30,241 bases of DNA from a virus (IMGVR_UViG_3300000304_000008:69363-99603), one strand, 5' to 3'; positions 1 to 28,484 are shown, counted from the stretch's first letter. The notes: generated by a model not told the origin, from the sequence alone. Made by a program: numbers and translations.

Positions 1-609
1 TTCGAGTGTATATTTATTGCCTCCGTCAATGCCTTTGGTAGGATTGTTGACAGAAACATTATACTCGCTAACAATATTTGTTATCACCCTTTGTGACATT
101 ACTGTATCCTCGCCGTTCCCAAAATCCTAAGACAATACTATATCACCTAACTATACACCACTATCTCCTTTATCACCTTTATCCCCTTTATCTCCTTTAG
201 GTATACCAAAGTTTAATACTGCATCTCTACCATCTTTAGTAGCAGTAACAGTAGCTTGACTACCAGCAGGTAATGTAGTAGTAGTACCAACTTCTATAGA
301 CGGAGCATTGTTTAATACATAATCTATTGTACTTTTCCAATCTTTCTTAGACCAAGTATAGAATACCTATTGTATAAATTTATTCTTAGCTGTTTCATTA
401 TAGATACCGTTCTCTCCTCTAAGAAGATGTCTAACTTTTCTTTCGACACATTTATTAGCTTTGGATTTGTTAAGTTTGTCGAAGTTATTATATAACAAAT
501 CAGCTACTTCCTTACCTGTCATGCCTTCTTCAATCTTGTCTATCTTTACGTTAGGACAGCAAGGTTGACAAGTATCACAGGCAGGAGTATTTTTTATTTC
601 TTTATCCAT
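1..609 (-). CDS. Tail fibre-like protein with short collagen-like repeat (3' end outside window; TAG read-through)
   Basis: ORF 367..609 continues through TAG at 367 with no TAA/TGA to the window edge. It contains the fibre-neck-like motif VGTTTTLPAGSQATVT...LNFGIPKGDKGDKGDKGDSG. Its N-terminal KIEEGMTGKEVADLLYNNF motif is shared with 6233..6880. Confidence 0.75.
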
Positions 610-611
610 AA

Positions 612-899
612 TTAATTAGTTTGTTCTGTATTTTTAACTATTTTAATAACGCCTTCATTTAAGGTAAACATATGAGATAACCAATCATTTAAGTCATTAT
701 AACTAACACCATTATTATCTAGCATCACCGGTATTTGACTTTTATCTTTCGTATTATATTCTACAATCATTTCAGCAAGTTCTCTTTCTATAAGATACAA
801 GTCATATTCATGTGAACTAATTATTCGATTTCCAAAATTCATCTACTGAATATTGAACAACACTCTATCGTCTGGAGAAATATATTCGTAATATGTCAT
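612..899 (-). CDS. Hypothetical protein, 95 aa (TAG read-through)
   Basis: ATG at 899 overlaps the TGA of the upstream gene (ATGA). One TAG precedes the track ORF 612..842. Ends TAA. Confidence 0.7.
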
Positions 900-3100
900 A
901 TGATTTGATCAATTAAATCGTATCCTAATGATACTAATTTATTTTTATCTGTTTCAGTAAGTTCAATAAAATTTTCATGAGGTAACGTGATAGTACACGT
1001 AGTTTTAGTTTGTTTGTCTACAATAGAATTTATGAATAATCTAACATTAGATTGTATTGTGCGAAATGTGATATTTGAATTATAAAAACATTTCCAATTA
1101 GAAGCATCAAATAAAAACGTCCATCGAGTACCATACTTACCATCATAATTACACCAATACTGAGGATTATTTGTTTTAATTGTAGTATTCTTCATTTTTT
1201 CTAATGTCCCTTCTTCAAGTGTAACACCTGTAACCATAATATCGTTATCATAGTCAATATAAAATCCGTCTTCTTCTATAACTTCTATTGTCTAAATAGA
1301 CTCATATGGGTAATATTCTATAAAATAATCAGTAAAACCATTTCTAAATTCTGTCTAATTAGAACCATCTATTCTACTGTACCCTTGTATATGTAAAGGA
1401 CAGCTTAATTGTACTGCTCCATTATTGTTTGTATAATTAGTTCTTTTTAAGTTAATATGAACTTTCGGAACAATTTGTTCTAAATTATCGTGTGGGCAAG
1501 ACCAATCTATGTAACCTTTAAACCAATTACAATAGACATCCGCAGTTTCAGAAAAACAATATAAAGAATCGCATTCATAATAAAAACAAGTAACAGGATA
1601 TTTTATAATATGTCCATTCCAATATTTACTTTGTCTAATATTATAAGTTCTATCATATATAATATTATCAGCATAAGTAATGCATCCTGCCTCATCTATC
1701 ACTATGTGAGAATTCTAACAATTTGTTAGCTTAAATGGAAAATATCCAAATTTATTACCTTTAACATCAAGACCACATTTGTTAGTATCGTCAATTAACA
1801 AAGTAGCATTTAATTTTAAATGAATATCTTGACAATTTATTTCAATTGGTTCTGTATTATAATATATGTAAGCTTTTGTTAAAAGGCATATTGACTCGTA
1901 ATTTGATTCCGTAGTACCAAGAATGGTAATATCTCCGTTTTTAATCTTATTTAAGATTTCATTGAACGGAATCGTATGTAACATATCTATATTATTATAT
2001 TCTGGAGATATAACTAAACCGGAAGGTAAAATTGTATTTGCATTTCCGGTATAAATAGTCATCCAATTTTTAATTTTATCAAGATTTTTATAAGTTAATT
2101 TTTTACATCTATAATAAGCGTCATATAGAAATCCTATATTGTAATTTCCGTTTGGAACGAAGTCTTGGATATCAAAGTCTACTATAATTTCAAGTTCATT
2201 TCCTCTTTTATAAGCATCTTCTGAATCTCTAAGCCAACCTAAATTAATATCGTTTATGTCACCATGATTATAATCGTCTTCTTCTGGAATATCATATATA
2301 ATAGTTGGAGGTAAATCTTTAAAAACGGGTCTTAATACAAATTTATTTGTTTTTGATGCTAAAAGACATATTTTATAATTGTTATTGTATTCACTACTTT
2401 TTATTATTTTACCAACATCAAATTCAGTATCTTCATCCCAGTAGATAATACCTCCGATAATATCCTTATCGTACGCATTTAGCAATCCGTTGTAATGTAT
2501 TTTATCACTATTACTATCTACGAGATAATAATATTTTGGATAACCGGCATACTAAAATCTCCACTGACTTGGATAACTTATTGCATAGATTACCTGATTG
2601 TTATTTATATTGTTTGTTATTCTTAGTTTTCTATTTTTAGCATCAAATTTATAATTATCCGCATTTGAGTTAACCAAATTTATCGGGCAATTTATGTGAG
2701 AACAATCGAATTCTAAATTTTTATTATTGTCTTGCATAATGTAGTCTATCTCTGCTACATTTGAAAAGTCACTATCTAATAAATTTATATTATTTGAAGA
2801 TACATTATTTATAAAATTTCTTGGAAATTTAAATATTCTATTACCGTCTGGTATTGATGGTATAATATCAAATTGATAAGTAGTAGCATTAAAATGACCA
2901 TAATTATTGTAACTATCCCAAGTAAAACCAATAAACCCCCAGATAGCTTCAAGAGAGTTCGTATATAACACACTTGTTAAGTCTAATACTTGAGCTAAAT
3001 AATCTTCCTATGTATAATCAATTTGTTCAGTACCTTCTGCAAACTCATCGTATGTTTGAGTTAGTACTATGTTTTTTGGTTTTATTTCATTCAATTTCAT
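896..3100 (-). CDS. Putative receptor-binding / LRR-like tail protein, 734 aa (TAG read-through)
   Basis: Track ORFs 2552..2971, 1715..2485, 1355..1702 and 896..1237 share one frame and are separated only by TAG. Asn/Ile/Asp-rich. The LEAIWGFIGFTW motif is paralogous to the neighbouring gene. Confidence 0.65.
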
Positions 3101-5339
3101 CTTGTAATAATGTTAAAACCCTAGAAATATCTTGTAAACGTGTCTAGGTATTTGAGTCCAACTTATTATAAAAAGATTGTTTTAATGTAATATATGTTAT
3201 CTCTTCTACATTATTAACAGATTGTGTAAACGTATTAACGTCTATGTTGACACTATCTATATATAAACAGATTACTCGCGGTATATTTTTACCAATTTTT
3301 AAATACTAAAACTAATCTCCATAAATATAGAATTCACAGTATGCGCTAAAATTATCCAATAATATTAAATCTTCAGCAGCATATAAATTACAGACAATCG
3401 TACCAAAATCGTCAGATCCGCTAAAACTAGGAGGGTGAACTAGACTTTTGCTGTTTATTAAAATTTTTGTATTTTGCCAGTTATGCGGCATTCCTGCACG
3501 GAAATTAAGTATTACATCGGACATGTCTTCTATTACATCGTTATTTATTAACTCCCAATTATACCACGTACTAGTGACTTCATTATATATATATCTTGGA
3601 GAACAATTTATTGTTTGAGGTTTTATTTTCTTACAGTTAAAATTAGAATCAATAGAAAAATATTTATAACCCATATAACTAGAAGCTGTATCAGCATCAG
3701 AAATTTCTTCTATATCTGAACAAATATAATCGGACATATTGTCACTTATTGTATAATCAAATAGATCTTGAGTCGTGTTATATGAGAAATTAAGACAAAC
3801 ATCATTAAGTTTATCAAAATTAACAAAAGTAAAATCAGGAGTAAAAATACTGCCTTTTAATATATCTCTTGATCTAACCACAACATCTCCAAAGTTTAAT
3901 TCAGAGGCTGCATTAAATACACAATCGTTATACAAATTATCGTATTCTTTATTGTTTTCTAAAATGTTTATAGGTAAATTTACACTATTGAAAGTAGTAT
4001 CTAAGAACATATTATTATAACTCTAACCTCCTGTAAATACTGAATTAGTATCTATGGTTAAAGTACCTCCTTGACAGAAATTATCATAAACGCATTTACT
4101 ATTTCCTATGAATTTTAAGTTTATATTTGCGTTGCTACAAAAGTCTACTAAAGTAACGTTAGAATGTTCTCCTGTTTGCCCACTGACATCAAACGTAACA
4201 CTATTATTAGTAGAATCGTGATTCATATCCATCAGGTACTCACCAAAATCTTCTACAAGATTGAAGTTAGTAAGATATTGAAGGGAATCCAAGAACGTAT
4301 CAGTTGAATTATTAATGGTACTGTTTTTAATTAATCCTTTAGCTGATTTAAGAACGTTGGATGTAAAATTAATTCCATTTACTTGACTAAGATCGCATTC
4401 TTCTAAAGCATAATCTAAATACTCGCAAACAGGCAAGGCTATATTATTATTATTATTATTAATGATTCTCGCCCTAAATAACCCTTTAGCAGTTGTTGCA
4501 GTGGCGATCTATGAAATATTAACATTTATCTGTTTTAGGTTATCTGCTCCAAAACAGTAATCAATATTTGTAACCTTGCTTTGTACAAATTGATTACTAT
4601 CGTATGGTGCAATATCACCTTCAACATTATAAAAAGCATAACTTAAATTTTCTGCTAACGGAAAGTTCCAGTTAAACGTAATAGTAGTACCTGCCACACT
4701 GTTAAATATATAACTACAGTCAGTAGCTTTAGGTAAATTTAAAGTATTATTAGCAATTGTTAATTGAATATTTTCAAACATGCCTCTAGCATTTTCAACA
4801 TTATTCCAATCACTAATCGCAAGTGTAAGATTACGAACGGTATCGGTAGGTCTATAACCGTTTAAGTTCATAGCTGAAATAATATTACTATTGTTAAATT
4901 GCTCTATATTCGTAACACTATCTTGTGAACCTAAAAAATAATTTATATGTTGTAAGCGATCACCATCTGTGATAGTTTTAACATTCTAAGTAGCTATTTT
5001 TAAAAACAGATTACCACCTTGAAGAATTTGTTCATTCCAGGTATATTCGCTCCATTCCCAACCAAAATAACCCCATATTATTTCAAGACCAGACCAATTA
5101 TCGGTTTCTTCTACACCATAATAATGACCTAATTTTTTATTATCGTTATTTGTGGTTCTTACGCTATACTAATAAGTCAATTCATTTGATTCATTTGCAT
5201 TTGGGTCTTTAATAATCCAATAACAACATTCTGTATAATTACCAGCTTCATAATCCTACTATTGCTCTTCACTACTATTATATAGTTTAATCCATTTGTG
5301 TTCTAAAGTTGGAAAAGTAATTGCCATAGTCGTAATCAT
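3087..5339 (-). CDS. BspA/DUF285-like leucine-rich-repeat putative receptor-binding protein, 750 aa (TAG read-through)
   Basis: Track ORFs 4509..4871, 4023..4436 and 3312..4010 join through TAG. TAATG overlap at the start, TGA at 3087. Repeats WNNVENARGMFEN, LPKATDCSYIFNS, FPLAENLSYAFYN and SKVTNIDYCFG resemble DUF285/BspA units. Confidence 0.65.
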
Positions 5340-6214
5340 TAAGCGTTCTGTAATTCTGTTATTGCTTGTTCATGACGAGCTAAAGCATTAGCAATAACAC
5401 GTTCATTATCTCTAATATAAGTTACGATAGAATCAAGATATTCCCCTATTTTATCATCAAGTAAATCATTAATGATTTGAGTTAAGTTATCGTTGCCTTC
5501 TCCATTAAAATAGTTATTAAGTATATCGTTAATATTGTCACCTAACCAACTTTCAACAATATTAGTTATATCCCAACCTTCTAACCATGCATTAATTATT
5601 TGAGTTAATTTTTCATCGTTTAACCATTCGTTAAATATCTACTCAATTAAATCCTTAATCATTTCCTCGTCTGGAGTTAAAATGCCATAATCAATATCAT
5701 TAGCCTACTCCATTAAGTCAGTAACTATCTTAACTATATCATCTATGATTAACTAAAAATCATATTCCTCCCAGTTATCAATATTACCATATTTACAATC
5801 ATCACAGCATATACATTTATAACGATAAGTCTTATCTTCATAATATACTTCACCGCATGTATCATATGCAGGTACATCTTGTATGTGCAATACGTTACCT
5901 CTATATCTTACAGGGCATGGAACTTTAATAGCAGTAGTAGCAAAATCAGTATCATATTTTTCATTAAAGCATTTATGATATATTAACTTTGTACTAACCC
6001 AATTAGTTTCATCAATCCATTTATCATCTGTTAAATCTTCTTCTGTACCAACAAACAATTCTATATGTAAGAAACCTTTAAAATCTAGATAACACAATAT
6101 AGTATTAGTTAAACGATATTCACTAGGTACAGATTGTTTAGTTATTGCTTCATTTGTATCATAATTAGTGAATACAAAATTATATTTATTTAATATCTAA
6201 GTATTGTAATACAT
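5339..6214 (-). CDS. Tail-region structural protein with acidic coiled-coil C-terminus, 291 aa (TAG read-through)
   Basis: Extends track ORF 5753..6097 in both directions through TAG. Ends ...NERVIANALARHEQAITELQNA then TAA at 5339. Confidence 0.7.
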
Positions 6215-6232: not shown

Positions 6233-6880
6233 TTAAACATCTGCACCAGTGGCATCTACCCATTTAGTACCATCCCACCATTGAGGCTATTTCGAAGATT
6301 CATCAAATCTACTTTGACCAGCTTTATAATTACCACTAATGTTAGCTTTAATCCACCAAGTAACATCGTAACCGTTAGGCTATACTCTAGTATTATTTAG
6401 TACTACTGTACCATTGCTTATAGTTCCTTCGTTAAACAGTAATACGCAATTTTCAGGTATATTGATAGTCTCACCATTTAAGTCAAAATCATATCGTATT
6501 TCATATACAGTATTGGCATTATTAATCATATCTTGTGTTAAGATATTCTTAGCTTCATTAGTTTCTGTATTACATACAATGTTCTTTCTTAATATCTTAT
6601 AACCTTTACCACTAAACTTATCAGGTTCATAAGCCCTATCTTTAAACTTTATCTTACCTTTATCAATAGTAGTATCTTCTTCATCTACTTGTGTAGCGAT
6701 AGAACCATATGCATCATCTACTTGAGATTGATATTCATCTAAAGTTCTATTTATATCTTCTTTAGTATGGTCAAACTAATCTGACAGCTATTGAAATTTA
6801 TTCTCTAAATTCTCAAAGTTCTGTTCAATTATGTCTGCTACTTGACCACCTGTCATTCCTTCTTTAATTTTTGCTGCCAT
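6233..6880 (-). CDS. Tail fibre-associated protein, 215 aa (absent from ORF track; TAG read-through)
   Basis: MAAKIKEGMTGGQVADIIEQNF...KFKDRAYEPDKFSGKGYKILRKN...YEIRYDFDLNGETINIPENCVLLF...WWDGTKWVDATGADV. The central domain is clearly paralogous to the N-terminus of 7682..12496. Confidence 0.8.
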
Positions 6881-6882
6881 AA

Positions 6883-7677
6883 TTAATCTTTCCAAATTTT
6901 ATTATCATACCAAAATTCATCATCCATATTCCATATATGGTCTTCAAGTATCCAATCGTGTTTAGCTCCTTTAGACATTGCAAAAAACAAATCATATAAA
7001 TCTGATAGTATTAAACTAGTAAATACTTTCTTTGCACAAGGACTAACGTTATGTTTTAATTCATGATTAAGATAACGATATAAATCATGTAATTTATCAG
7101 GTGTAGCATAATCATTAGCATTATCTGATTTACATGTAAATGGTATCTTATCCATACTTACATATCTCTATAAATCTTTATAATAATGTATTGCTAAATC
7201 TTCATTATTATAATAATAAGCATCTTTAAGTAAAGATATACGAAGCATAAATGCCATTAAACCCAGTAAGTCTTTATACTCTGCACAGTTATTACAGAAT
7301 GAACCACAACCATTACCACAATTATCTTTAGCTAAACCTTCAAGATATATTCCTTTAGCCTTAAATAAACTGAAATTATTTAAAAACATTACATGTAATG
7401 TATTAGTAGTTTCATCAGTATTTACTAAAGTAAACTCTATAATACAAAATGTAGGAGTATAATCTTCAGGAACGATAGTTAACCGTATTTCTTTTTTAAC
7501 AGTAGTATTAAAAGCTGGGGAAGTTGTTCTAACATTAGTCTCTTCATTCTAATGCTTTTCCCATTCCCATATACTATATATCTTTATATCTGTTATACGG
7601 TCTACCTATTCGTCATGGTTATTGATAATTATTTCAATACCATTATTTGTTAACTTTTTATTAATTATATAATTCAT
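6883..7677 (-). CDS. Cys-containing tail-region protein, 264 aa (TAG read-through)
   Basis: Joins the 3' part of 7606..7791 with 7168..7389 and 6883..7155 in one frame. Has a CGNGCGSFCNNC cluster and a Trp-periodic C-terminus (HIWNMDDEFWYDNKIWKD). Confidence 0.7.
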
Positions 7678-7681: not shown

Positions 7682-10600
7682 TCAATCAAGTGAGTAAATA
7701 AAACTACTAGTATTACCTGTATATCTATATCCAATATGTAGACTATATAAACAATCAGTAGTATGTAGAACAGACCCGAATGCTCCATCAACTATATCTG
7801 GTACTAGCGATACTGCCCAATTAGTTGCATATGATGTACTAGTACTAGAATAATTTGCAGTCTACTCCATAACGTTTATTGAATTTACAGCCAACGCTTT
7901 ATATGCTAAAGAATATGACAAACCAGTTATAGTTTTTGATGAATTGCATGTCCATGCTCTTATCATATTACCAGCCGCATGAGGAAGATAAGTAGTATAT
8001 GTATCTGTAGATGTAATGTTAAAGAACGGTGTAACAAAATAAGTTACAATATTAAGAGGCGTAGTACCACTTAAAACAACATTTACAGAGAGATTTCCTA
8101 TAACTGGTGATATAGAAGGATATAATAATAGAACACTTGTACCCTAAACTCTAAACTTTAATGTATGGTTAGGAGCCAAAACGGCGGGCAATCCCCAAGG
8201 CTATATAGAATAATCACTAATACCGCCAGTAATACGAATTTTTAAACATTGACTAGCTAATGCGTAAAGTGAACTTCTATTTATCGCATTTAATGATGCT
8301 GGACCCATAGATAATTCAAATTCTCTACCACCACAATTAGCTACATTTATAGTAATAGTATTCATTGTCATGGATTGTCTTTCAGCAGTAGGACCTGCAA
8401 AATAAAAATGGGATGCAGTTTCATTTGCTAGTGTAATAGTAGCTGAACCAAAATTATACTATTTACTTTTAATAGTATTAGCACAATCTTGTGTTAATGA
8501 ACCTTTTATTGTAATGTTACCCTCAGTATCCCAGGTAATATTACCATTAGCTAATTGACCTGAACCATCATCATTAAAATAAGAAGAGCCAGCACCAAGC
8601 CAAACTTCACCAGTTTCACAGTTTAACAAATAATTAGGTCTAAATGAATTATTAGTGTTCATAGGATCAGATTTCTTAAACTCATCGTAGCTATTTGTAG
8701 TACCATCGCTAGAATTTTTTCCATACATACTAAATACAAACTCATCGTTAAATACCATTTCGCCGATAAGACCATTAGCAATAACGCCAACTTTAGTATA
8801 TATAGCTTCAAAATCTTCCATCAAAACCCACACATCTGTTCTTTGATTAGGATATGCGTTACCTTGGTTTGTACCCAACCAATCAAAAGTACCATTATAC
8901 ACATAGAAATTACCATCCTAAGTATCATATACATATGGTGCTTTTTCATCAGAATACTCGTATGTCTTCTTTACATCGTAAATACCAGCAGGATATATAA
9001 TCTAACTTCTGTTTACTTCAATAGAACCATCTAAACCATTAAGACCAGATAATCTCATCATCTACCAAGTACCACCTACAATGCCATCATCATCTGGATC
9101 TATTCTAGCTTGGATACACCATACATAAGGATATTGCACAGTAGTATCAGGTATTTCAGTAGACCAACCGGATGGGTATCTAGATTGTAGATTTGTAGGA
9201 CTATGATTAGCCTACGGAGCATCTTCTGTACCTAAAGAATATCGTATTTCAAAAGATATACCTGGTAAACCATCTACACCATCATGACCAGCAGGACCAG
9301 GATTACCGGTAGGACCCATTGGACCGACATCGCCTTGAGGACCTTGTGGACCTGTTTCACCACTAATTCTTACAGGGTCTGACCATGTACCATTAAGCGT
9401 ATCGTCAGAATTAATTAATGCTACAGTCATCCATAAGTATTGACCACTAGATAAATCGGGTGGATTTGTAGTCCAACCACTAGGAGTTCTAACACTATTT
9501 GTTAAAGAAGGGGGTTGAGTACTAGAAGTATTTGCTCTGAATCTAAATTCATATCGTTTACCATCTTGTGCAGTACCATCTCTACCATTAACGGGAATAA
9601 CTTCTGACCAAGAAATTACATAACCCGTAACACCATTTACTGTACCTATACATTGCCACCATTGACCGCTATCATCAGGATAATCTGACCATCCGCTTGG
9701 TAATGGATCTGTAGAGGTAGGCGCATTTGGTTTAGTATCAGATTTTTTATAGATATAAGTTTTCCAATTAGGCAATACCGCGTCTTCTCCATCTATCACA
9801 ACTGGTACTGTTTCAATATCTATTAACGTACTACCTTTATATAATTTAAATACTACTTTATTAGATATAGAAGAAGAATTGATAATAGAATTTATAGTAT
9901 ATGTACTTTCAGAACCACCGTCTAATGCTCTAGTTAATCGCATATTACTAGGCAACGAACTTAAACTAATTACATTATTACCGTCAATACTATTTACTCC
10001 ACAGGATACATGTGCATCAGAATATTGTCCTTGTTTATCTACTTTGATAACATTAACAGATGGACTCAATTGATACATGACAGCATTAATCCCATCCTTT
10101 AATTTAATAATTCTAAATACTATACTACGCTCGTAAACATTATTATTATATGTACCAGTAATTGTATAATTTATTTCAATAGTATCTGATGTACTAGAAG
10201 CAATAGATATGATAGTAGAAGTACCAGTCATCGCTACATTATTCACCGTTACACCACTTACCGGTGTATTAGTAATACCGGTAATCTATACATCTTCCGT
10301 ATCGTAATACATAAAAAATCGTATAGTTATTGGTAATCCATCTATTACATTGCCATCTTGGTCACACAATACTTGCGCCATTTCATTATCTATATCTAAT
10401 AGTACTGAACCAGCAGGACCTTGTGGTCCAACATTACCTGTAAGTTTAATAGGCGTAGTCCAATTAGATAATAAGGTTTCATCTCTACCGTGTATACGAG
10501 CAGAGGTCATCCATATGTAATAATTATCGGCTTCAACATATGGAACCTCAGTTGTCCAACCAGCAGGATTACGATTAGTTTCATCTAATTCAGGTGGAGT

Positions 10601-12496
10601 AGTTTGACTAGAATTAGTAGCATATCTAAATTCAGTATAATCTCCTGGGGCTAAACCAGCTGTACCTGATAATAATATTGGGTCAGACCATTCACCAACT
10701 AATTCACCTTTTGCTGTAAAATATGCTTGAATCATCCAAAGCACATTAGTTTCTGTTAAAGTTGGTATTGCTGTACCCCACACAGAACCAGGATTTATAT
10801 TATCTTTTACCACAACAGGTACATTGTCCGGTCCAGATGTAGTACAATACATAAATCTGATAGCATTACCATCTGCACCTATTTCGCCATCATAACCCCA
10901 TTTAGCCCATATTGCTGGAGTACTAAAATTACTCCACGTTTTATCAATACCTGAATAAGTGCGTTTAGATACCCACTCAAAAGGATATTCTAAATTTACG
11001 CCCATAGGATTATCTGTCCAACCTACTGGTACATAATCATCTTCATTTGAACTACCAGGTGTAGCAGGAGTTATCTATTCTGTAGTTCTAGTAAATATAT
11101 ATTCTACACCATCACCATCTATACCATTAGTTCCATATTTTGACCATATGGCAGGTGTAGTAAATTCTGTCCAAGCATTATCTTTAAATTGTCTACTACA
11201 AAACCATTCATATTGATTTACAGGATCTACACCAGATGGATGGTCAAACCAACCTTGAGGTACATAATCATCTTCATTAACCGATGCCGGTTTTGTTGGG
11301 GGAGTATTATCTGTTGTTCTGCAATATATAAATTCAATACTAGAACCATCTTTACCAGGTTCACCATCAATACCTGAAATACGTACAGGGTCAGACCATT
11401 GTCCTATTAATATACCATACTGATTAAACATACCTTGAGACATCCATACTGTAGTTGTCATGTCCTCTGGAGCTGCTATCCAACCTTCTGGATATGTAAT
11501 TTCATTAGTTTCAGTATTAATATATCCTCCGTTCGGTCTAGAAGGTTTTGATTCAGATTCTTTATAACAAAATATTACACGTCCTTCTGTAGCATTTATA
11601 CCGTCTGCACCATCTTTACCTCTAGGTATAGCGAATGTAAATTTAAATGTACCATCGTCCTGTAAAGTTACTTGAGCATCTACTTCTTCGCTTTCAACAG
11701 CGGTTGCTGTAGCACTGAAGCTATTAGCTAATTCTTCAGCTGTTGTAGATATTACCCAATTTGAACCATTAAACCATACTGGTTTACCTAACGTAGTATC
11801 AAAGTATTCAAAGCCTACAGGTATGTTTGTAGTAGGTCTATCTGAAGAACTACCGTATCGTTTAATATCGTAACGAATACCATCAGCATAACGCCAAGTA
11901 TCATCATCTTTATCATACCACAAAGGCGTACGATATTCTTCATCAGTATTGTATGCTTGATAACCGCTATCTTTGTGATCTATAGATAATATTTCTTGTA
12001 ATGTACCATTGGTTAAATCCATTAATTTAACTAATGTACCATCTTCTTTCTTATAACAAGCATAGGCATTATTATCACCATCTATTTCTTCCCAAGTTAC
12101 ATACTATGCGTCAAGTAAGAAAGTACCGGTTAATTCAACATCTATAAATTTACCAGTATTATAGCCAGCTATTAAAGTACTGTCTCCTTGAATAGTACCG
12201 TTTTTTATAGAACCACCTTTAAACTATAATACAGAACTTTTAGGCATAATAATAGTTTCACCCTGTAAGTCGAAATCATATCGTACTTCATACACGGTGT
12301 TATCGTCCATTATATCAGCCTATATAAGACAATTACCTGTATTACAATTTTCATTTTTGATTCGTAAGATTTTATAGCCCTTACCAGAATAGATATTTGG
12401 TTCGTAATCTCTATCTTTAAATTTAAGTATATTTTCTTGTACTGTTAAGTCTTCATTAACACCAGTAACAGTATTTATATCTATATTTTCTATCAT
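7682..12496 (-). CDS. Large repeat-containing tail fibre protein, 1604 aa (TAG read-through)
   Basis: Track ORFs 11075..12022, 10286..11005, 9212..10246 and 8459..8902 lie in one frame, linked by TAG-only gaps, ending TGA at 7682. About 8 Trp/Pro-rich modules (xEFxY...P.GW...YxW...WSxPxxxxG) are separated by Gly-X-Y collagen-like linkers. Confidence 0.85.
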
Positions 12497-12944: not shown

Positions 12945-13018
12945 ATCTCGATTAACGTAAATATTAATTTGGATATTGTTATTTTGTATGGTTATAACCA
13001 TAGTTTAATGGCTATAAT

Positions 13019-17232: not shown

Positions 17233-18702
17233 TTACTCTGAAAGCATAATGAGCTCCCCACAAGCGCGCGGGTCTCTTAACATAATGCCCACTTCACCCA
17301 AAAAGTGAACGCTATAACCATCCTTCGCATTACTACGAACTTCAGTATTAGAGTGAGCATAACCAGCAGGTGTTACAGAACCAGCAGTACACCAGTTAAC
17401 GAATTCACGGTCTTTACGTACTACTTTAACTACGTTAGCTTCACCATCACGTCTACCAAGGTCAAGGAACGTAATACGATAAGATTCCAACGGTTTCAAA
17501 GTAACCGGATGCAATTGACGGTTGTAAGTAGTATTATCATACAACGGGAAATATTTTAACGTCAACTCAATACCATTAGTCATCTTATAAGTCTTGAACT
17601 GACCACCGAAAGTTAAGTTATCACCAGAACCAGTAACTAATACAGTATCAATTAAGTTCAGATTAGCCATCTTTTCTTTCAGTACACGGTCAAATTCACG
17701 CATACCCATTTCACCAGTGAAACCGATGAATTTACGTTCGTTAGTACCAAGTACGTTATAAGACAAATCTGCCAAGAAATCTTCCAACAGTTCAGCAGTC
17801 AAACGAGTATAATAACGTCTGTTAGACGGAGCAATTTGTTCCAACAAACCTGCACCAATCATAACCGGACGACCATTCTTACCTTTTAGATTGCAAGAAC
17901 CATCCTTATTAACATTACATTTGTTGTAAACCAAACCTCTTTCAAGACGACGATACCATTCACGCATAGCAACCCATTCCTGATACGGAGCCCACAAATA
18001 AGACGATTTACCAGTCTTCGGGTCTTTCAAAGCCACTGCCATAACAGTAGAGAAAGCGGAACCAGTAATATCATAGCTAAGACGTGCAGTCCACAAATAG
18101 TTACGCATCTTGAAGTGAGTGTTGTAGTTCAGGATATCAGCCTCTTCACTGTATTCTTCGTATGCAGAAGCAAGACGAGATACTTGGCAACCTGCCTTAA
18201 GATATTCAGCTGGTACATACGATGCAGGATTACCATTTGCAATGAAAGTCGTGTATACGTACAGATTACCATCTTGATACGGAGCATCAGCTACACGCAA
18301 TTGGAATTCTTTATTATCGAGTTCCAAAAGTGCACCTGGACCAAACCAGTTATCTTCCAACCACAGAATAATTGGTGTATTATTTAAACCAGCAGTTACA
18401 CCGTCTGTGATAGCAGCACCATTCCACTTAGCATCACGAATAGTAACAGCACGGTCTTGGTCAATCATTACACCCCATTCAAATGCCGGTTGGTCAATGG
18501 TAAGTACATTACCCAAACCACCAGTCAACATATCCAAAGAAGTCTGATAACCTTGGTCTTTAGTACCAAATACGTAAGACAAGATAGTACCTACTTCATA
18601 AGGTCTCTGCTGAGAAGCAATACTAATCTTATTAGTATCAATCAAATCAGAGAACCATTTACCTTTGTATAAAACTAGGTTATTAAGAATATTATTCTCC
18701 AT
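17233..18702 (-). CDS. Major capsid protein (crAss-like), 489 aa
   Basis: Longest TAG-free ORF, with codon use typical of high expression. It follows an acidic scaffold-like gene. Features such as GAGLLEQI, TGEMGMREF and the C-terminal GIMLRDPRACGEL resemble crAss-like MCPs. Confidence 0.9.
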   Translation of the reverse strand: MENNILNNLVLYKGKWFSDLIDTNKISIASQQRPYEVGTILSYVFGTKDQGYQTSLDMLTGGLGNVLTIDQPAFEWGVMIDQDRAVTIRDAKWNGAAITDGVTAGLNNTPIILWLEDNWFGPGALLELDNKEFQLRVADAPYQDGNLYVYTTFIANGNPASYVPAEYLKAGCQVSRLASAYEEYSEEADILNYNTHFKMRNYLWTARLSYDITGSAFSTVMAVALKDPKTGKSSYLWAPYQEWVAMREWYRRLERGLVYNKCNVNKDGSCNLKGKNGRPVMIGAGLLEQIAPSNRRYYTRLTAELLEDFLADLSYNVLGTNERKFIGFTGEMGMREFDRVLKEKMANLNLIDTVLVTGSGDNLTFGGQFKTYKMTNGIELTLKYFPLYDNTTYNRQLHPVTLKPLESYRITFLDLGRRDGEANVVKVVRKDREFVNWCTAGSVTPAGYAHSNTEVRSNAKDGYSVHFLGEVGIMLRDPRACGELIMLSE

Positions 18703-18739: not shown

Positions 18740-19891
18740 TTAAGATATACGTAGTCTTTTTGTAAAATTATCCCAGATAGTAGAATCATCAGAACGATTT
18801 GCTCTTGTAGTCTGTTTTGTTTTGCCACTTACTGAAGTAGACCGCAAACTCTATTTGAACTTATCTATTGCTGAGTTATTACCTTCTCTCTTAGCAGCTT
18901 GAATCAATTTATCTGCATTTTTAGTAAAATAAGCAGATTCAATTAAATTCTTTACACCACCTTTAATATAATCAGACTGATATTTAGTTTTACCATCTGC
19001 GCCAGGCTTAAATATATAATCTATTAATTCACGTTTATCTTTTTCAGGAATAGATATACCACGTATATTTTTTAAATCTTTTATTTCCGCCACAACGTTA
19101 TCATAAAATTCCTGTTGTTGCTTTTTATATTGTTTAAAAGCCTTTTCCTAATCAGCCAATAGCTGTTCCTTTTTCTATTGTCTAATCTCTTTTAAATCTT
19201 CCAATGCATCCTAAGCTTCATCTTCAAGTAAGCCTGCATCTTCATATTTACTAATTTTCTTATCAATTTGTTTTTGACTAAATCCTTTTTCTTTAAGTAA
19301 GGCTTTTACTATTATTTTTTGAGAACCTTCGTCTTCTAAATCAATACCATCTAAATCAATTTCAGCATCTATTTTTAGATAATCTTGCAACTTACCACCT
19401 TGTTTCACAAAATTATCTAACTATTCTACTTCTTCACTAGCATAAGTAGGCTTACTTTCTTCTTCAATAATATTCTAAAAGTAATCAATTAGACTTTCGA
19501 TAGTATTTGGTTTTTCTTCATTTTCATCAAATTCCCATCCTAATTTTTCGGAAATAGCATCAAAGAATCCACCTACCATTTGTTCTTCATCAAAAGATGG
19601 TTCTTCAATATCTTCTTTAATTTCATTTTCTTTTGTTTCAGGTTCTTTAATATTTTTATTATTTTCTTCGTCTTGCTCTTCTTTATCTTCTTTTTCTTCT
19701 TTCTTTGTATTTTTTACTTGTTTAAGAGCAGGCTCTTCTTGATTGTTTTTAATTTCTTCAAGTTCGTCATCTGTTACAGAACCTTTTTCGTTATTATCTA
19801 TAATTTCTTCAGTTTCTTCTTTATTTACTTTGGGGACAAACGAATCAAATATTGCTTCAAATCCACCCAATGTATTCTTATTTTCTTCCAT
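18740..19891 (-). CDS. Acidic putative capsid scaffolding protein, 383 aa (TAG read-through)
   Basis: Joins 19475..19891, 19211..19408 and 18851..19093 through six TAGs. Has a Glu/Lys-rich disordered N-terminus and lies immediately upstream of the MCP. Confidence 0.7.
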
Positions 19892-19902: not shown

Positions 19903-21675
19903 TTAATTAGAATCTTTTTCTTGTGAATAATTGTAAATGATAGGTGTAATAGCACCAGACATTCTCTATCTTTGTCTAGATTTACTTAATAAATACTACT
20001 ATTCTTCAGGAGTTAAAGTAGTTCTAGAATTAGATTTTAATTCATCGACTATACCATCAGTACCGTTTTCAAATTTTCCCAATATGTGCAACCACATATT
20101 ATTATTTAATTTTAGTATTGGTTTAAGTAATTTGTTCTTTCTACTATTTAAATTTTCTCTAAGAGTTAACTCGTAATCATAATCAGTTTTAGTGGCAGGC
20201 ATACCATATCTATAAGCATCACTAGTAGAGGTTATATTTGGTTGTGAACGGAATCTTGCAAATCTAACGAAATCTCCAAAACTATTTCCAGGTCTATATC
20301 CTTCAAATAACTATGATTCTAATTCTGGCTAAGATTCTACCCCATTTAAAGCCCATCTACCTTTTTTATTAACATTAGTATATGTTGTATTCTAATCAAC
20401 GATATTCAATAATTGCTGATTAGGTTCTTCTGCAAAATATGCTCTTTCATATCCCGGTAGTAACGCTCCTGTCCTTGTTGTATATTGTGCTTCTTTTGCT
20501 ATAAACCCATTTTTAGCCAAAGTCTTATAATCTGGACTAGCAAACAAATCATAAGGATAAATACTACGTCTAAAGTTACGTAATTGTTGCTCTATAGGCA
20601 AAGTTTCGTCATTTATATACGGGTATCTAACTAGAGCAACATCTGCTCTAGAAGGTCTAACGTCTGCAACATCTCCCATTGGTCTACTAAACCTGTCGGC
20701 AATTTCACCACTATTCGATACATATATACCAGTATGACCAGTATTCAACCTATCTCCACCAGTACGCTCACGACTTGTATTAACTGTCAACGCTTCGTTA
20801 ACAATATCGTTTATATTTTTTTGCTAAGCTACCTAAGGAGAAAAACTTACTCCTCTAACTGCTGTTGTATTTTTAGTTAAGTACTAATTTACCGCTTCTT
20901 GAGATAATGGATTTAACTATCGATTATTTAATATAAACTAAGCATAATTGGGGTCTTCGTTTATTATGTCGGTAATATGCTATATCTACCAATCATCATA
21001 ATTATATGTATCTCTTAAGAAATTTAATTCATCCTATAATTTATCTTCATCTAACTTTGCTGCTTGTTGAGCATTGCGATATTTGTCTATAGTCTACTTA
21101 TTAATTTGCTTTCTTACTTCTGGATGTTCAGTTGTATAATATTTATTGAAAATATTACCGTAAACATCTCTTAAATCTTTAATTTTATCTTCTACAAAGT
21201 TATATTCTGTCTATCTTCTACGATTATAAGGTTTTAATTCTTTAATTAAATTTATATTTCTCTTTAGTTTTCTACCAAATCTTCTTAATGGTTTTTCTAT
21301 AATATTTGGTAAAGCTGCTAAAACTAAACCTGTAGCTCCTGCCAAATATTCTTCATTTGCAAAATCTTTTGCAACATCGTAAACTCCTTTAATGTCACCA
21401 ATTACTGGAACATAATCGATAACATCTTCAGGACCAATTCTGGTCTATTTACCCCAAGCATCTAGCATAGCAGAATTATAAGCATCCTAATCAAACGGTT
21501 TATTGATATAATTACCGTTTGGAGTTACAACTACTTCTGGTAATACAGTGTTAGTCACTTCGTCTGTACCTTCAGCATATTTATTAGCTTTCCACTACCA
21601 ATAAGATAAGCTAGGGTTTGATTCCCTAGCCTACTTATATTCATTCATGTACTATCTAAATTCATTTCTATTCAT
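19903..21675 (-). CDS. 590-aa putative capsid cargo/effector with pre-toxin-TG-like segment and ADP-ribosyltransferase-like motifs (TAG read-through)
   Basis: Single frame with about 20 TAGs and no TAA/TGA, including track ORFs 20392..20790 and 19999..20202. Motifs: IDYVPVIGDIKGVYDV, AVRGV, GIYVSNSGEIADRF, GYERAYF. The ORF is solid; the function is inferred. Confidence 0.6.
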
Positions 21676-21826
21676 AAAGTCTATTTGATATTAAATTAGC
21701 AGCAATATTCATAGCAAAATCATTTAAATTAGCTTCAGGTGAATCTAATCTCTATGATAACTATAATAATAATAAATAAATTCTTTCAAGAAGCTCTCTG
21801 TCACTTAAGGTATTTAAACCATCCAT
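21662..21826 (-). CDS. Small hypothetical protein, 54 aa (TAG read-through)
   Basis: MDGLNTLSDRELLERIYLLLLQLSQRLDSPEANLNDFAMNIAANLISNRLYEQK. Fills the gap and overlaps both neighbours. Confidence 0.5.
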
Positions 21827-22118
21827 AGTGTTTTCTATTATTTAAATATTCTAAATTATTTTCATTATTATAAGCTTCTTGTTCAAAGGAAATATTGCGA
21901 TAAGCATTACCTTTCTTAAATAATCTTATAACCCATTCTACTATATACCAGACATAAAAGAATATGTATAACATTTCTTTCATCTGAACAGTATGAATAG
22001 ATTCATGATTTAAATCCTATTCAGATATTTTAGCTCCTTCTCTAACAAACAATATACCAAATAAGTTTATTGCTTTATAACCAGGAAACGGTATTATTTT
22101 ATTTTCTATTATCTTCAT
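21801..22118 (-). CDS. Small HExxH zincin-like putative metallopeptidase, 105 aa (TAG read-through)
   Basis: MKIIENKIIPFPGYKAINLFGILFVR...LNHESIHTVQMKE...AYRNISFEQEAY shows HExxH plus a downstream ExEA third-ligand motif. Confidence 0.75.
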
Positions 22119-22119
22119 A

Positions 22120-22344
22120 TTAATGTTTCCATTTAGAAGCATTCTTAGCGAATACTGCTTTCTTTACCATAGCTTTGCTATATTTATCCTTATTTGCTAA
22201 AACTTGTTTAGCAAAAGCCTAAACAGATTTACCATGTTTTTTAGCTGCTGCTGTGAAAGTACCTCTTTTAGATTTTTTAATATGTATGGTACCTCCGTCA
22301 GAATAGCACATTATTAAATTACTATTTTTAATAGAGTGTTTCAT
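22120..22344 (-). CDS. Small basic protein, 74 aa (absent from ORF track; one TAG)
   Basis: MKHSIKNSNLIMCYSDGGTIHIKKSKRGTFTAAAKKHGKSVQAFAKQVLANKDKYSKAMVKKAVFAKNASKWKH. TAATG overlap at the start. The IHIK..RG.FT...FA.NA.KWKH pattern resembles small crAss-like virion proteins. Confidence 0.75.
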
Positions 22345-22406: not shown

Positions 22407-22413
22407 AATAATC

Positions 22414-22424: not shown

Positions 22425-22428
22425 ACTA

Positions 22429-24939
22429 TTATTTTTTACTTTCGCCAACTACTCTATTTTTTAATGCTGTACGAGCTTTAAGTTTTTCTCTTTCCATCGC
22501 TGCTTTATCACTCATACGTTGCAGTTCAGTTTCATGCTTCATACGTTCTCTTTCGAGTTGAATCTTTTTATTTTCAATCTCTTTCTTGTTTTCAGATTCA
22601 CGCATTTTAGCATTAAATTCAAATTGTTTAGAAGCCTCGTCTGATGCCTGTTTACGTTCATCTAATGCTTGTTTAGCTATTTCCATTGGATCAGGTATAC
22701 CGTTAGCATTCTAATCCATATTTTCAGAACCTCTATAAGCATTCAATTGAGCAACAGTAATCTTAGTTTGAGCATCGGTATCAATCTTATATTTTTCAAG
22801 ATCCATTTCAGCTTCTTTAATCATCAGCTCTTCTTCTTTGACTCTATTTTGTTCTTCTACTAATTGGCGTTGGGCTTCTTGTTCTGCTTGTTGCTGTTCC
22901 TGCATTTGTTGCATACGCTTATTCTCAATTTCTTCAAGACGTTGCTTAATTTCATTAACATTATCCATAGTAATAATTTCAGCAATATCTAATAAACTAG
23001 CACCGTTTTGCATAGCAGGTTGCATTAATTGTCTTAATTGCTCCAACTCATTTCTTTCTTTAGTAGAATCATCTACGAATATATCCATGTCTTCATAGAA
23101 GAAAGAATCACTTAGAGTTACAAAAGCTCTAGTAGCATCATCGAGTATGTAATTTAATACTGTTTTATTATCTTTCCAAGCATATCTAGCTGTATCTAAT
23201 AACATAGTAAGAACCTGTTTCTTTACTTGATTGTGTGTCCAGAACCATGGTTCAGTAATGTGATAAGATTGAGTAATAGCCTGATTAACATTACCCACTA
23301 ATTCATTAGCCGCAACGGAACCTTGTCTTTGTGGTGTAATACCAGTAAGTCTAGCTACCATATCTTCAATCTTAGCCATAAGATTAATGTATTGGTCTAT
23401 TACATTAGCCATACTTAAATCCCAAGCCTAGAATTGATTAAATGAAGCAGGTTTACCACCTTCTCTACCAGGTATATCCCAACCATCTTCATACGGATTA
23501 ATAAATGCTACACCTAATGCAGATAAATAGTGCATCCACTTATTAATATCAATACCCATATTTTTAGGTATCTAAGTAACATCAATAACAGGTACTTTGC
23601 CTTTGTCTCTAGCCATCGCTAATTCTAGACGATACCATATAACAATATACATATATTGTAAAGGTTTCATCATACTAACCAAACTCTTGGGTCTACTATT
23701 GGTATTATTATAAACCGCACCAGTATAAGGTAATTTCTATGAATTTGGATTATCAGCAGATATGTGTTGATATTCTATAGGCTATATACCAAAATATAAA
23801 GCATCTTCGCCTTCTCCAGCTCTATATCCTTCCCATACTTCTACAATCCAATCCCAGGTTACATCTATTTCTTCGCCTGTTATTTGATAACTTTCGTCTA
23901 CTTGAAACTCTTCTACTTCACCAGTTTCAAAGTTAGTTAAAGTAACGAAACCTATCTTTTTAAAAGATTTCCAACAAGTATGATAAACGTTTAATTGGTC
24001 TGAATCAAACGGATCATTAGTATACATATTAATTCTATGCATATCTACGTGATTGTAATCTAATTCAGATTTCTCCATTCTAGGATAATTACCAACACCA
24101 GGTTTAGCATCAATTAAATCTAATAATCTATTTAATTGCTTTTCATCTAGTTTATCATAGAACCTATCGTAGATTTCAGTAGGATTCATTACCATCAATC
24201 TACAGCACCAAGAAGCGTCTTGTATAAATTCTAAATCTACAGAATGTTCGTAATCAAAGAACATTGGATTTACTCTTTCTACATAAGGCTGACCATTCAG
24301 TATACCAATATAATATTCTTCTTCACCGCCTATTAATGCATCTTTCCAACCTTTATAGAATTCATGAGTAAGATTTAATTTCTTTTTTAAATATTTTAAT
24401 GATAAGTATGCAGCTCTTTCTGCAATATCTTTATAATCTTTAGTTACATATTTCTATATAGCTTCAGGTTGCATTACTTCACCACTAGCTAATTGCTGCT
24501 AATACTATACTTGATTTTCAGGACTTAAATTAGCCATAATACTAGCCATTATATAATCTACCAATAACGATTTTAACTATTCTTGAACTTCACTAGCAGC
24601 TTCATTACTAGTTCTACATACTTGAAAATTAAATGGTCTTTTAGTTTCCTCACCAAGTAACTAGTCAATATAAGGTTTAATTATATTATAATCCTATGCT
24701 GTAGCAGGGAAACCATCTTTTTGTTTAAACGGATTTGTAACATACTTTAAATCTTTTTCATTATATATACTATTGTATAGGTCATAGTATGTCTACATTT
24801 CTGACGTACGTTCAGTATTAAATCCGTATACACCTACGTTACCTGCACCAATAATATAATTTACACAATCTCTTTTCCACTATTCTGTTTTCTTTCTAGC
24901 AGGTAGTTTTTGTATTGGAAATGATTTAATATCTAACAT
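22429..24939 (-). CDS. Portal protein, 836 aa (TAG read-through)
   Basis: Joins 23782..24264, 22711..23412 and 22429..22686 in one frame. Starts FPIQKLP...WKRDCV, includes YNIIKPYIDQLLGEE and EVWEGYR, and has a long coiled-coil C-terminus. Directly follows terminase. Confidence 0.9.
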
Positions 24940-24941
24940 AA

Positions 24942-27900
24942 TTAATTACTAAATGTATATACATTATCTTCAACTACTGCACCGTCAGATAGTTCTGATT
25001 CACCCCATCCCTGCGCAAAGATAGGACCGTCGAACAGTAATCTACTTTTATTTGCTTTCTCTTTTTCTTTTACAGTGACATTAAACAATTGTTCCCTATA
25101 AATCATCAATTGCATCATTGCCATTACTCTATCAACGTTAACTATATCGTTGTAAGCAATTAATTCTTCGATTAATGGTTCTGATAATATATGGTATAAA
25201 TTCTTAGTACCATCGACGTTTATTTCATTTAACCAGTCTTTTATTAGACCTTCACCCCAAGCTTTTATTTGCTTGTTCATATGGCAACCTTTTTTACGAT
25301 TAACAGTAGATTTACTAACTACTATATCACTAATTATATCAGGCTAATCTGCCAATAGATATTCACAATGTTTGCTAGTAAAATAAACAAATAAACCTTT
25401 ATTCTGATTTTCATACATTGCAGTAGCATTATAGTATATAAGTAGTTTGCGTACATTCTCATAGAATTCTTCAGCTGTATTTGGTCTACCAGTATATTCA
25501 GCTACTATAATATCAGAATAAGATTCTATAGACTATACACGTTTATATATTATACAAGAGCCTAATGAATTAGTACCCGACTAATCATAATCATAAGAGT
25601 CTATACCAGCAATGTATAAACCATAAGGTGCATTTTTCATAGGGTGTTCCCATATTACTATAGAACCTGTTGGGTCATCATCTTTCTTTAAAGGATAATG
25701 TGTAATATCACCTGTTTTCTTAATAATCCAACGAAGTTGACCATCTCCTGTCTGGATTAAATCACCAACTTGTTTATAATTCTATAGCTCTTTATTAGTA
25801 CGTATTCTAGATAATTGCTCTTGTAATTCTTTTTTAGGGAATATATTACCACCAAATTCAAGACATGCTTCTTGAGGAGTACATGCATGTTCTGCAACAT
25901 ATCTATCTACTGCAACAGTATTAGTAGCTGCTGATATTACTTTACGTCTTTCTTCAAGTATAAACTCTAGAGATTGTTTTAGTAGAGTATTACCATCTTT
26001 ATCCATATAAAGACGTTTACCATCTTTATCACGTATATCTAAATTAGTATACTGTGGTATAAAGAAACCACATTTAGTGCCGTTAGCAGATTCATCCCAT
26101 ATGTTTTCAAACTCCATACAGTTATAACCGTCTGGATTATAAAACATATCTCTTAGTGTTTGAAAGTGAGAATCTTCATCACCACCAGTATTATGTGTAA
26201 CAATACCGTTTACAATATAATTATTTTGTTCATTAGCGGTTAAATTATATATTTTCTAAACGCCTATGTCTTCAATTTTAATAATACGCTCAGCGTGAAT
26301 ACCTGATACATATTTATGATACTTGGCTAAGTGATTCTAAGCAAATAAATAAATTAAATCTAATGCAGATTGTTTATAGTCGACGCGTAATTCAATATTA
26401 TCTGCGAATTTACTTACAGAAGTAATATCGTTAATTTCTAGACGCCATTCTCCATTCTTGCTTTTTATTAATCTACCGTTAGAATAATGCTCCCTATTAT
26501 CTGATTTTATATGCCTAACAGAGCAATGTATACCAAAATGTAGCAATACTTCTTGTACTTGTAATAATATTTCTTTTTGACATTGCGCCAGAATAATTCT
26601 CACTCTACCATCTTTATCTACTCTAATATATCCATCTGTGTCAAACAAACCACCTATTAACTCAGTTAAAGTATATCTATCGTACGTATGAATATCTAAA
26701 GGTAATCTCTTTTTATCTTTTGTTTGACCATAAATACCTAGTTCTCTAAGTTGTTTACATATACCTTTTATACGAATTTCTTTGTATTCTTTACCTTCTT
26801 TTGTAGTGTATTCTTTTTCTATCGCTGTGTCAAAATTACCTAAAATATAATCAATTACGTTTTTATCACAATTGGCTATTCTTGGTGTCTTATCGTAACC
26901 GTAAGTACCGTCACCTATAAGCCAACCAATTAATCTTGGTTCCCACATTTTCTTTTTACCAAAATAAGGAATCTCGTCTATAATACCTACTTGGTCACCA
27001 ACTTTACACAAATCAGCTCTGTGCCACAACCAAGATTTCATACGCTAATTTTCGTTACGCTTACCCGGCACTCTTTTTGTTTTACCTGGTGTAGACCACA
27101 ATAACGGATGGTCTATACTACACTCTATACTTCTACCAGAATTAGTAGTTATACGTAAGCAAGATTTCTCAGAAGGTGGGTTTATATTTGATATATTTTG
27201 TGGGCAAGCCTGATAAGTATCCCAGCCCATTATACCGTCTTCAAATGTTATATCTTCCACGTTAACGCAGTTACCTTCAGCTGTCCATACTCTAGAGCCT
27301 GCGCAAACACAACCAAATGCAATCATAGTACCAAACGCAATACCATCTTGTTCTACAGAAGGTCGAGCAATTTGCCATGCTGCACCTAATTCACTAAAAG
27401 AACCAGCTTCTTCAAATATAATTAATTTACCTGCTTTACCACGCACTACATCAGGATTATCTTTTAAAGTAACACCAATTATTTCTGATTTATAACCCAG
27501 TTCTACCTCGTTACCAAATTCATCTTTAGTATAAAAACCAGCTCTTTTACGCATAGTAGTATTTACACTACGCTTTTTACCCCATGCCGTATTTTTATCT
27601 ATAAAGTCCATATAGTCCCACGCTTTAGTAAGAATACCATCTTCAGTAAGATACTATTTGTTACTTGCATAAATATACGTTTTACTACCAGGTATTAGAT
27701 AATAATTTCTGCACGCCATTGATGCATTCTTATATGAATAACCCTTTCTACGGCTTTTTAGTACACACAAATGCTTACCTTCTTCTTCTGCATCATTTAC
27801 AGATTGAAAAAAGTAAGCATCATAATCGTAGAAATCTGGAAATTCTAATCGTCTTGATTTCTTAATTTTACCATTTATTACTTCGTAGACTATTCTCTAA

Positions 27901-28118
27901 ATAGGACAAAAATTGATATAAAAATAATTATAACCAGATATATAATCTCCATCTTTAGTTCTATACCCATCTAAGCATCTCCTTTTCTATTCATCCCAAT
28001 ACTGAAAGTATTCAGTAGTATTGATAGCATAATTACAATACTAGCCAGTCTACTCGAAGTGAATAGCTGGCTCACGGAATTTATCTGTATTTTTAAATCT
28101 TTTTGTAAAGTCTACCAT
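24942..28118 (-). CDS. terL: Terminase large subunit precursor, 1058 aa including intein (684 aa spliced; TAG read-through)
   Basis: Walker A-like LKSRRKGYSYK, Walker B LIIFEEAG, FG|TGG motif split by an intein, nuclease YIAGIDSYD, and C-terminal NVDRVMA. Four track ORFs lie in one frame. Confidence 0.93.
26190..27311 (-). mobile_element. Intein with LAGLIDADG homing endonuclease in terL, 374 aa
   Basis: N-terminal CVCAGSRVWT, block B IECSIDHPLL, LAGLIDADG motifs LIGWLIGDG and LIGGLFDTDG, C-terminal YIVNGIVTHN followed by Thr (+1). Confidence 0.93.
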
Positions 28119-28248: not shown

Positions 28249-28260
28249 ATTAATGCAAAT

Positions 28261-28306: not shown

Positions 28307-28334
28307 AATGATTGATTTTTCATTTAACTTGTAG

Positions 28335-28404
28335 TTGCGGACTCCGACTCGAACGGAATCTTGAGATTATGAGCCTCAAATGCTATCCTTTGCACCAATC
28401 CGCG
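28335..28404 (-). tRNA. tRNA with CAU anticodon (initiator-Met-like)
   Basis: CGCGGAT-TG-GTGC/GCAT D arm; TGAGG-CTCATAA-TCTCA anticodon arm; TCCG-TTCGAGT-CGGA T arm; GTCCGCA-A. C1:A72 mismatch, CCA not encoded. Confidence 0.85.
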
Positions 28405-28411
28405 ATATTAG

Positions 28412-28484
28412 TCGCCCCCGCAGGATTCGAACCCGCACCTACTGGGTTAGAGCCAGTCTTGCTACCATTACAAATTAGAGGGCA
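28412..28484 (-). tRNA. Amber-decoding tRNA, anticodon CUA (probable tRNA-Gln)
   Basis: TGCCCTC/GGGGGCG acceptor; ACTGG-CTCTAAC-CCAGT anticodon arm (CTA at 28450-28448); GCGGG-TTCGAAT-CCTGC T arm. U1 with a weak first pair, as in tRNA-Gln. Confidence 0.92.

Follow-up and report, generated by a model that had tools for sequence, protein, structure and literature searches.

This report concerns the codon TAG and a phage-encoded amber suppressor tRNA in a complete virus record of 99,603 bp that carries direct terminal repeats (IMGVR_UViG_3300000304_000008), specifically in its bases 69363-99603. The whole stretch of 30,241 nucleotides (nt), with positions counted from its first letter, is referred to as the window; all of its genes lie on the minus strand, G+C content is 31.5% and the late genes, as we argue below, very probably read TAG as glutamine (Gln) rather than as a stop. 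The window is the virion and packaging (late) half of a 99.6-kb crAss-like phage (order Crassvirales, family Suoliviridae). Its 489-amino-acid (aa) protein encoded at 17233..18702 matches Pfam Crass_capsid (E 5e-209), its terminase large subunit (TerL) and portal match phrog_6681 (E 1.5e-145) and phrog_6547 (E 2.8e-165), and the nearest classified genome is Afonbuvirus cr6_1, another member of the Suoliviridae, with 86% identity in the capsid and 71% in the portal protein. Portal identity amounts to 55-71% with Suoliviridae genera and to about 30% with Steigviridae such as crAss001. At 71% portal identity to the nearest RefSeq record and 96% to an IMG/VR contig, the genome is a separate species-level lineage.

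Read along the coding strand, the locus opens with two TAG-free open reading frames (ORFs) of 179 and 110 aa (28762..29621) directly upstream of two tRNA genes, and these ORFs are the last on this strand of a block compatible with the standard code. The tRNAs are the suppressor (anticodon CUA; 28411..28484) and, between it and TerL, a tRNA with a Met-type anticodon (CAU; 28334..28404). TAG-free genes extend up to the tRNAs and TerL (24942..28118; 1058 aa, 12 TAG, stop TAA) starts 293 nt later, followed by the portal gene (22429..24939; 836 aa, 13 TAG, stop TAA). An in-frame intein (about 26191..27311; Hint and LAGLIDADG, with Pfam matches to LAGLIDADG_3 and Intein_splicing) sits in TerL and itself holds 3 TAG, at TerL ORF positions 358, 594 and 621; it is a gap in the alignment with the closest relative (L010) and present in two others (L012, L013).

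Translation table 11 splits the late genes into pieces, which fuse into 21 abutting or overlapping ORFs when TAG is read as sense. Together these contain 118 in-frame TAG and no internal TAA or TGA, and the 20 complete ORFs terminate in TAA (15) or TGA (5), their ends often overlapping the next ATG. An annotation made earlier from the sequence alone (the original prediction) had claimed that the gene breaks are in-frame TAGs and that all gene ends are TAA or TGA; the former is confirmed, while the latter holds for every complete ORF of the window and fails in the early block of the genome, where 4 of 54 ORFs terminate in TAG. Two strings it had quoted are found as described: CAA GTA TAG TAT TAG CAG CAA runs in frame at 24513..24493 of the portal gene, and GFEQD-TAG-KRIDDL is present in ORF 14170..14886. 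With TAG as sense, ORFs of 100 aa or more cover 90.4% of the minus strand instead of 51.4%, and those of 200 aa or more 84.7% instead of 26.6%, a gain in coding density that comes with TAG only and on the coding strand only. Two other reassignments were tried and rejected: TGA as sense (code 4) gives a minus-strand cover of only 52.1%, and TAA as sense covers 57.5% of the coding strand but 44% of the non-coding strand as well, an unspecific gain because both strands rise, as expected at this G+C content. A search of codon context revealed no read-through-specific context, and the base following TAG resembles that after CAG and differs from that after CAA.

The three genes that the original prediction held to be hidden from standard gene calling are real, in that each has homologues. 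They are ORF 22120..22344 (74 aa, 1 TAG, stop TAA), with a homologue in the standard-code phage cr55_1 (E 2e-9); ORF 14170..14886 (238 aa, 7 TAG; phrog_15924, E 8e-8), with homologues in cr114_1 (E 4e-80) and in standard-code cr55_1 (E 4e-71); and ORF 6233..6880 (6895 being an alternative to 6880; 215 aa, 4 TAG), which matches DAC15 (E 7e-33) and crAss001 (E 2e-20). None of the three is visible under table 11.

To identify the residue, window genes were translated with X at TAG and compared (tblastn) with nine annotated crAss-like genomes, among which cr55_1, crAss001, phi14:2, DAC15 and Fpv2 show homologues free of in-frame stops and form a standard-code set; residues opposite TAG were then scored by log-likelihood against each amino acid's own substitution profile. 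In cr55_1, a close relative, Gln stands opposite 18 of 47 TAG (ordinary Gln codons of the window are kept as Gln at 45%), including ten of the best-conserved TAG sites (TerL 155, 846, 862, 925; portal 49, 82, 386, 456, 743; scaffold 248). Here Gln is the best-scoring residue by 35 log-likelihood units, and when the five standard-code phages are pooled it leads Lys by 36. Opposite TAG, standard-code homologues thus have Gln as the best-supported residue. A scan of IMG/VR for other assemblies returned 80 portal relatives (68-96% identity), and in-frame TAGs occur in 80 out of 80. Across 65-80 of these, portal 49, 82 and 456, TerL 155 and 862 and scaffold 248 are solely TAG or CAA/CAG, and TerL 846 is likewise TAG or CAA/CAG save for one Ser among 79 relatives. 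The closest independent assembly (L010, portal 96%) has 29 TAG, 14 CAA/CAG and 6 other codons at TAG sites of the window. By these alignments, TAG and CAA/CAG are used as synonyms across the relatives.

That TAG might instead be a sense codon with a different meaning (Lys, Glu or, among class-II types, for example Ser, Leu or Tyr) draws on Lys, which ranks second in frequency at TAG sites. When the four distant standard-code phages are taken by themselves, Lys trails Gln by only 2.9 log units, which is a point against Gln; in addition, the isotype of the tRNA is not fixed by its sequence, and three relatives carry a tRNA(CUA) with a long variable arm. Yet the leads of Gln in cr55_1 and in the pooled set, and conserved sites which alternate between TAG and CAA/CAG only, are difficult to square with any other residue, and even in one of the long-arm relatives (L013) TAGs align to Gln or TAG in 16 of 23 cases. 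We therefore consider another amino acid very unlikely and retain Gln.

The same comparisons bear on the idea that errors of sequencing or assembly produced the TAGs, or that they mark decaying pseudogenes, for which nothing speaks except the fragmented look of the genes under table 11. Each of the 118 breaks is a TAG, with TAA and TGA absent among them, the frames are open and homologous over 66 kb, and the genome is complete with terminal repeats. Moreover, out of 79 relatives assembled independently, as many as 72 have TAG at the same site. Since TAGs are conserved across assemblies and change mainly to CAA/CAG, we exclude error and decay as explanations that are scarcely credible. The original prediction had named assembly error as a way in which it could be wrong; relatives from other assemblies, recoded without exception and with TAGs at the same sites, show otherwise.

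The proposed decoder, tRNA(CUA), had been placed at 28412-28484. ARAGORN (tRNA(cta)) and the Rfam tRNA model (42.4 bits, E 4.5e-7) both recover it, with one correction, namely that it begins at 28411. It folds into a canonical class-I cloverleaf with a U1.G72 pair, G2-C71 and A73, its D loop containing GG and its T loop reading TTCGAAT, and it is the only tRNA(CUA) of the complete genome, situated exactly where TAG-free genes give way to TerL. A tRNA(cta) is found within 6 kb of the portal gene in 63 of 80 relatives. When 24 distinct tRNAs from the orthologous position were aligned, 18 of 21 pairs showed compensatory changes. Every sequence had the CUA anticodon, U1, A73 and a 1:72 pair that is weak or mismatched; pair 2:71 is G-C in 15 and C-G in 9. 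RefSeq labels the syntenic gene in cr6_1, cr114_1 and cr131_1 'tRNA-Gln', and ARAGORN reads its anticodon as CUA. No exact copy of the tRNA's 3' half turned up when bacterial genomes were searched.

Do the features of this tRNA point to Gln? In E. coli, identity elements for glutaminyl-tRNA synthetase (GlnRS) comprise a weak 1:72 pair with U1, G2-C71, U35, G73, G3-C70 and G36. The window tRNA agrees with this set at U1.G72, G2-C71 and U35. Other features depart from the set or leave a Gln identity unsettled. Instead of the G73, G3-C70 and G36 of E. coli tRNA-Gln it has A73, C3-G70 and A36, and it carries one extra base between the acceptor and D stems. Furthermore, U1 together with A73 is also seen in other isotypes of crAss-phage tRNAs, and although the two most similar of 35 tRNAs are phage tRNA-Gln(UUG) genes, their mean identity is only 0.51 as compared to 0.50. 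Of these deviations, A36 is forced by the amber anticodon, and tRNA-Gln(UUG) genes of Bacteroides phages also carry A73, which suggests that E. coli identity rules may not carry over. In sum, the isotype is not fixed by the sequence of the tRNA, and the putative Gln assignment rests on the codon-level evidence.

ARAGORN attaches the label 'tRNA-Pyl' to this gene, and TAG as pyrrolysine has the CUA anticodon, and only this, in its favor. tRNA-Pyl is an atypical, compact tRNA unlike the canonical cloverleaf and goes along with pylS and pylBCD genes. In the window tRNA, by contrast, the D loop is normal and contains GG, the anticodon stem has 5 bp and the T loop reads TTCGAAT. The 99.6-kb genome is too small to accommodate pylSBCD and gave no match to GlnRS, the one synthetase family looked for, and it is Gln that stands opposite TAG, so to our minds pyrrolysine is practically inconceivable. 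A different scenario sees the phage tRNA(CUA) as not the decoder, or not the sole one, with a host suppressor or another factor being needed. In line with this, 17 of the 80 relatives show no tRNA(cta) within 6 kb beside the portal gene, recoding and suppressor tRNAs are known to agree imperfectly (Yutin 2021, PMC7886860), and the allele in the window occurs only once and has an unusual linker at the D arm. Among the 17 loci, however, several are short or truncated upstream of TerL, and absence is therefore not established for them; the single tRNA(CUA) of the complete genome scores well in Rfam and sits at the code boundary, and in relatives the cloverleaf is maintained by compensatory changes. 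Hence, the need for another decoder strikes us as quite unlikely, and the phage tRNA(CUA) remains our candidate for reading TAG as Gln. Coding density, Gln opposite TAG and the tRNA(CUA) together support the reassignment of TAG to Gln across the late genes as originally predicted.

The neighboring tRNA(CAU), which ARAGORN detects and which falls below the Rfam gathering score, displays a C1xA72 mismatch like bacterial initiator tRNAs but lacks their three anticodon-stem G-C pairs. It is kept at the corresponding place in cr114_1 and in L010.

On the scale of the complete genome, the late recoded block spans 31.8-97.5 kb on the minus strand (about 66 kb), and the window covers its last 28 kb. 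In this block 381 TAG among 21,153 codons make up 37% of the Gln-type codons (31% in the window). Scanning the genome with TAG as sense adds little or nothing to ORF cover in the first 30 kb or so and lifts it from 5-68% to 87-100% between 30 and 98 kb. Early and replication genes are without internal TAG and compatible with the standard code. As for the four early ORFs that do end in TAG (G000:C1 7567-8013, 18846-19364, 24299-24892 and 29380-30219, all outside the window), a backup in-frame TAA or TGA follows 1-19 codons downstream of each, and for this reason late read-through would add a short tail only. In the complete genome, no RF-1/RF-2 release factor domain was detected, nor was there a match in a profile search for GlnRS, the only synthetase family searched. 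ARAGORN also reports a permuted transfer-messenger RNA (tmRNA) with the tag GNKFVTDYTRIAA at G000:C1 10992-11349, again outside the window, and cr114_1 likewise has an annotated tmRNA.

The remaining late genes continue downstream of the portal. Beyond the hidden ORF 22120..22344 lies a 113-aa ORF (21801..22142; 1 TAG, stop TGA) with homologues in 66 relatives, and then an ORF of no known family (19903..21675; 590 aa, 21 TAG, stop TAA) with the highest TAG density in the window, TAG accounting for 62% of its Gln-type codons. The latter has no PHROG or Pfam match; its L010 homologue is 83% identical and homologues exist in only 14 of the 80 relatives. An acidic protein in scaffold position (18740..19891; 383 aa, 6 TAG) precedes the major capsid gene (17233..18702), which is followed by ORFs at 16396..17148 (250 aa, 1 TAG), 15671..16393 (240 aa, 7 TAG) and 14886..15668 (260 aa, 4 TAG), the last with a weak match to CrAss_Ring_3_4 (E 0.038). 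Downstream of ORF 14170..14886 come ORFs of 327 aa (13078..14061) and 167 aa (12498..13001; 2 TAG). The original prediction had called ORF 14170..14886 a ring protein and ORF 12498..13001 an endolysin; neither has a significant Pfam or PDB-sequence match and these labels could not be verified. A tail fibre-like protein with a collagen-like repeat (7682..12496; 1604 aa, 13 TAG, stop TGA) matches DAC15 (E 2e-124), and the next ORF (6883..7677; about 264 aa, 4 TAG) has its ATG at 7677, just past the stop of the fibre gene. Past ORF 6233..6880, the window holds ORFs at 5339..6214 (291 aa, 4 TAG), 3087..5339 (750 aa, 9 TAG, stop TGA), 896..3100 (734 aa, 5 TAG, stop TGA) and 612..899 (95 aa, 1 TAG), and it ends at 1..609 with the N-terminal 203 aa (3 TAG) of a 1082-aa ORF that leaves the window.

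TAG is not evenly spread over these genes. The capsid gene contains none (Poisson P 0.002), with neighbors at 1-3.6 TAG per 100 codons, and the 327-aa gene at 13078..14061 is equally free of it (Poisson P 0.015). In 54 relatives, TAG frequencies per 100 codons are 0.06 for the capsid gene versus 1.30 for portal and 1.55 for TerL. The capsid pattern is compatible with a codon of lower efficiency being selected against in the protein made in greatest abundance. More generally, the late genes with the highest expression seem to avoid TAG, to a degree that scales with the expected level of expression.

The suppressor locus itself is variable. Taking as allele types tRNAs less than 80% identical to one another, 64 genomes with a tRNA(CUA) carry at least 11 types. 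On the portal tree these types require 31 changes (minimum 10; mean with shuffled labels 34.6) and are almost unlinked from it. Four allele types occur side by side in one clade of 39 rows, of which 38 are nearly identical. Suppressor loci were compared between the window (28119-28484) and relatives L010 (2148-3943), L020 (1858-2900) and L031 (3127-3951). The window and L010 share homology of 91-95% that stops precisely at the 5' end of the tRNA and resumes at the start of TerL. Many alleles have a free-standing GIY-YIG homing endonuclease immediately 3' of the tRNA, among them those of L010, L020 and L031, and none is present in the window; in L020 the GIY-YIG domain is accompanied by NUMOD1, to which L010 has a weak match. 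Three relatives (L013 1423-1511, L061 2626-2714, and L063) possess an 89-nt tRNA(CUA) with C1-G72, whose long extra arm has the loop UUCUGAA or UUUUGAG, a Gln-type anticodon loop (UUG or CUG), and one of these long-arm relatives belongs to the window's own four-member clade. It is possible, albeit a tentative view, that the suppressor-tRNA locus acts as a mobile and fast-swapping cassette. By analogy with SegB of phage T4 and the T4 tRNA region, GIY-YIG enzymes could drive the preferential inheritance of their own suppressor allele. Turnover of alleles may instead be selected by host factors attacking tRNAs.

How does this compare with known systems? In the delta group of crAss-like phages, TAG is read as Gln mostly in late genes, suppressor tRNAs are encoded and TerL can combine one or more inteins with TAG codons (Yutin et al. 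2021, PMC7886860). A model with the standard code early and recoding late has been put forward for crAss-like phages (Borges et al. 2021, bioRxiv 10.1101/2021.08.26.457843), and peptides with Gln at TAG were detected in two other crAss-like phages (Peters et al. 2022, PMC9523058). Our phage shares with code 15 members of the delta group (now Suoliviridae) the order, family, codon and amino acid, the restriction of recoding to late genes, the phage tRNA(CUA) and a TAG-bearing TerL intein, and does not differ from the delta group in kind. Similarly, in cr6_1 (Afonbuvirus), cr114_1 (Aurodevirus) and cr131_1 (Cacepaovirus) the suppressor tRNA is upstream of TerL and late genes are fragmented under table 11, and in cr114_1 the suppressor is also paired with a tRNA-Met. 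In contrast to the window, a homing-endonuclease gene adjoins the tRNA in all three, and their allele types differ from that of the window (less than 80% identity). Among bacterial suppressors, E. coli supE (glnV44) is a tRNA-Gln with anticodon CUA, U1 and a weak 1:72 pair that reads UAG in competition with release factor 1 (RF1). Whereas supE derives from a host tRNA by point mutation and confers partial suppression, here the tRNA is encoded by the phage, whose essential codons relying on it number in the hundreds. The original prediction was correct in describing TAG-to-Gln recoding as already known, since it has been published for exactly this clade (PMC7886860, PMC9523058, bioRxiv 10.1101/2021.08.26.457843). 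Our finding is thus right yet not new, and it adds no concept to the published picture of recoding in crAss-like phages.

Taken together, we hold it highly probable that the late genes use code 15 (UAG as Gln), that the phage carries a canonical tRNA(CUA) and that its early genes are compatible with the standard code. The genome shows that the late genes need UAG read-through, that the residue is Gln by the codon-level evidence and that the phage has a tRNA(CUA) of its own. A sequence of events may be envisaged in which early and replication genes would be translated by the unmodified host machinery, which could read them because they have no internal TAG and a few of them end in TAG. The tRNA(CUA) would then be charged with Gln by the host's own enzyme, as we infer because neither GlnRS nor a release factor is found in the phage genome. 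Full-length late proteins might be made only after the tRNA has accumulated and competes with RF1 of the host, and the outcome may be a translational delay or a safety lock on late genes. A scan around the tRNA for sigma-70 promoters, which does not extend to those of Bacteroidota, and for terminators was empty on the coding strand. The near-absence of TAG from the most abundant virion protein is compatible with suppression being less efficient than ordinary decoding.

For annotation, these findings mean that the late block needs gene calling in code 15, without which the contig would forgo about 40% of its coding capacity along with several genes. Allele exchange beside endonucleases and the avoidance of TAG bear on how a private phage code is kept up and how it spreads.

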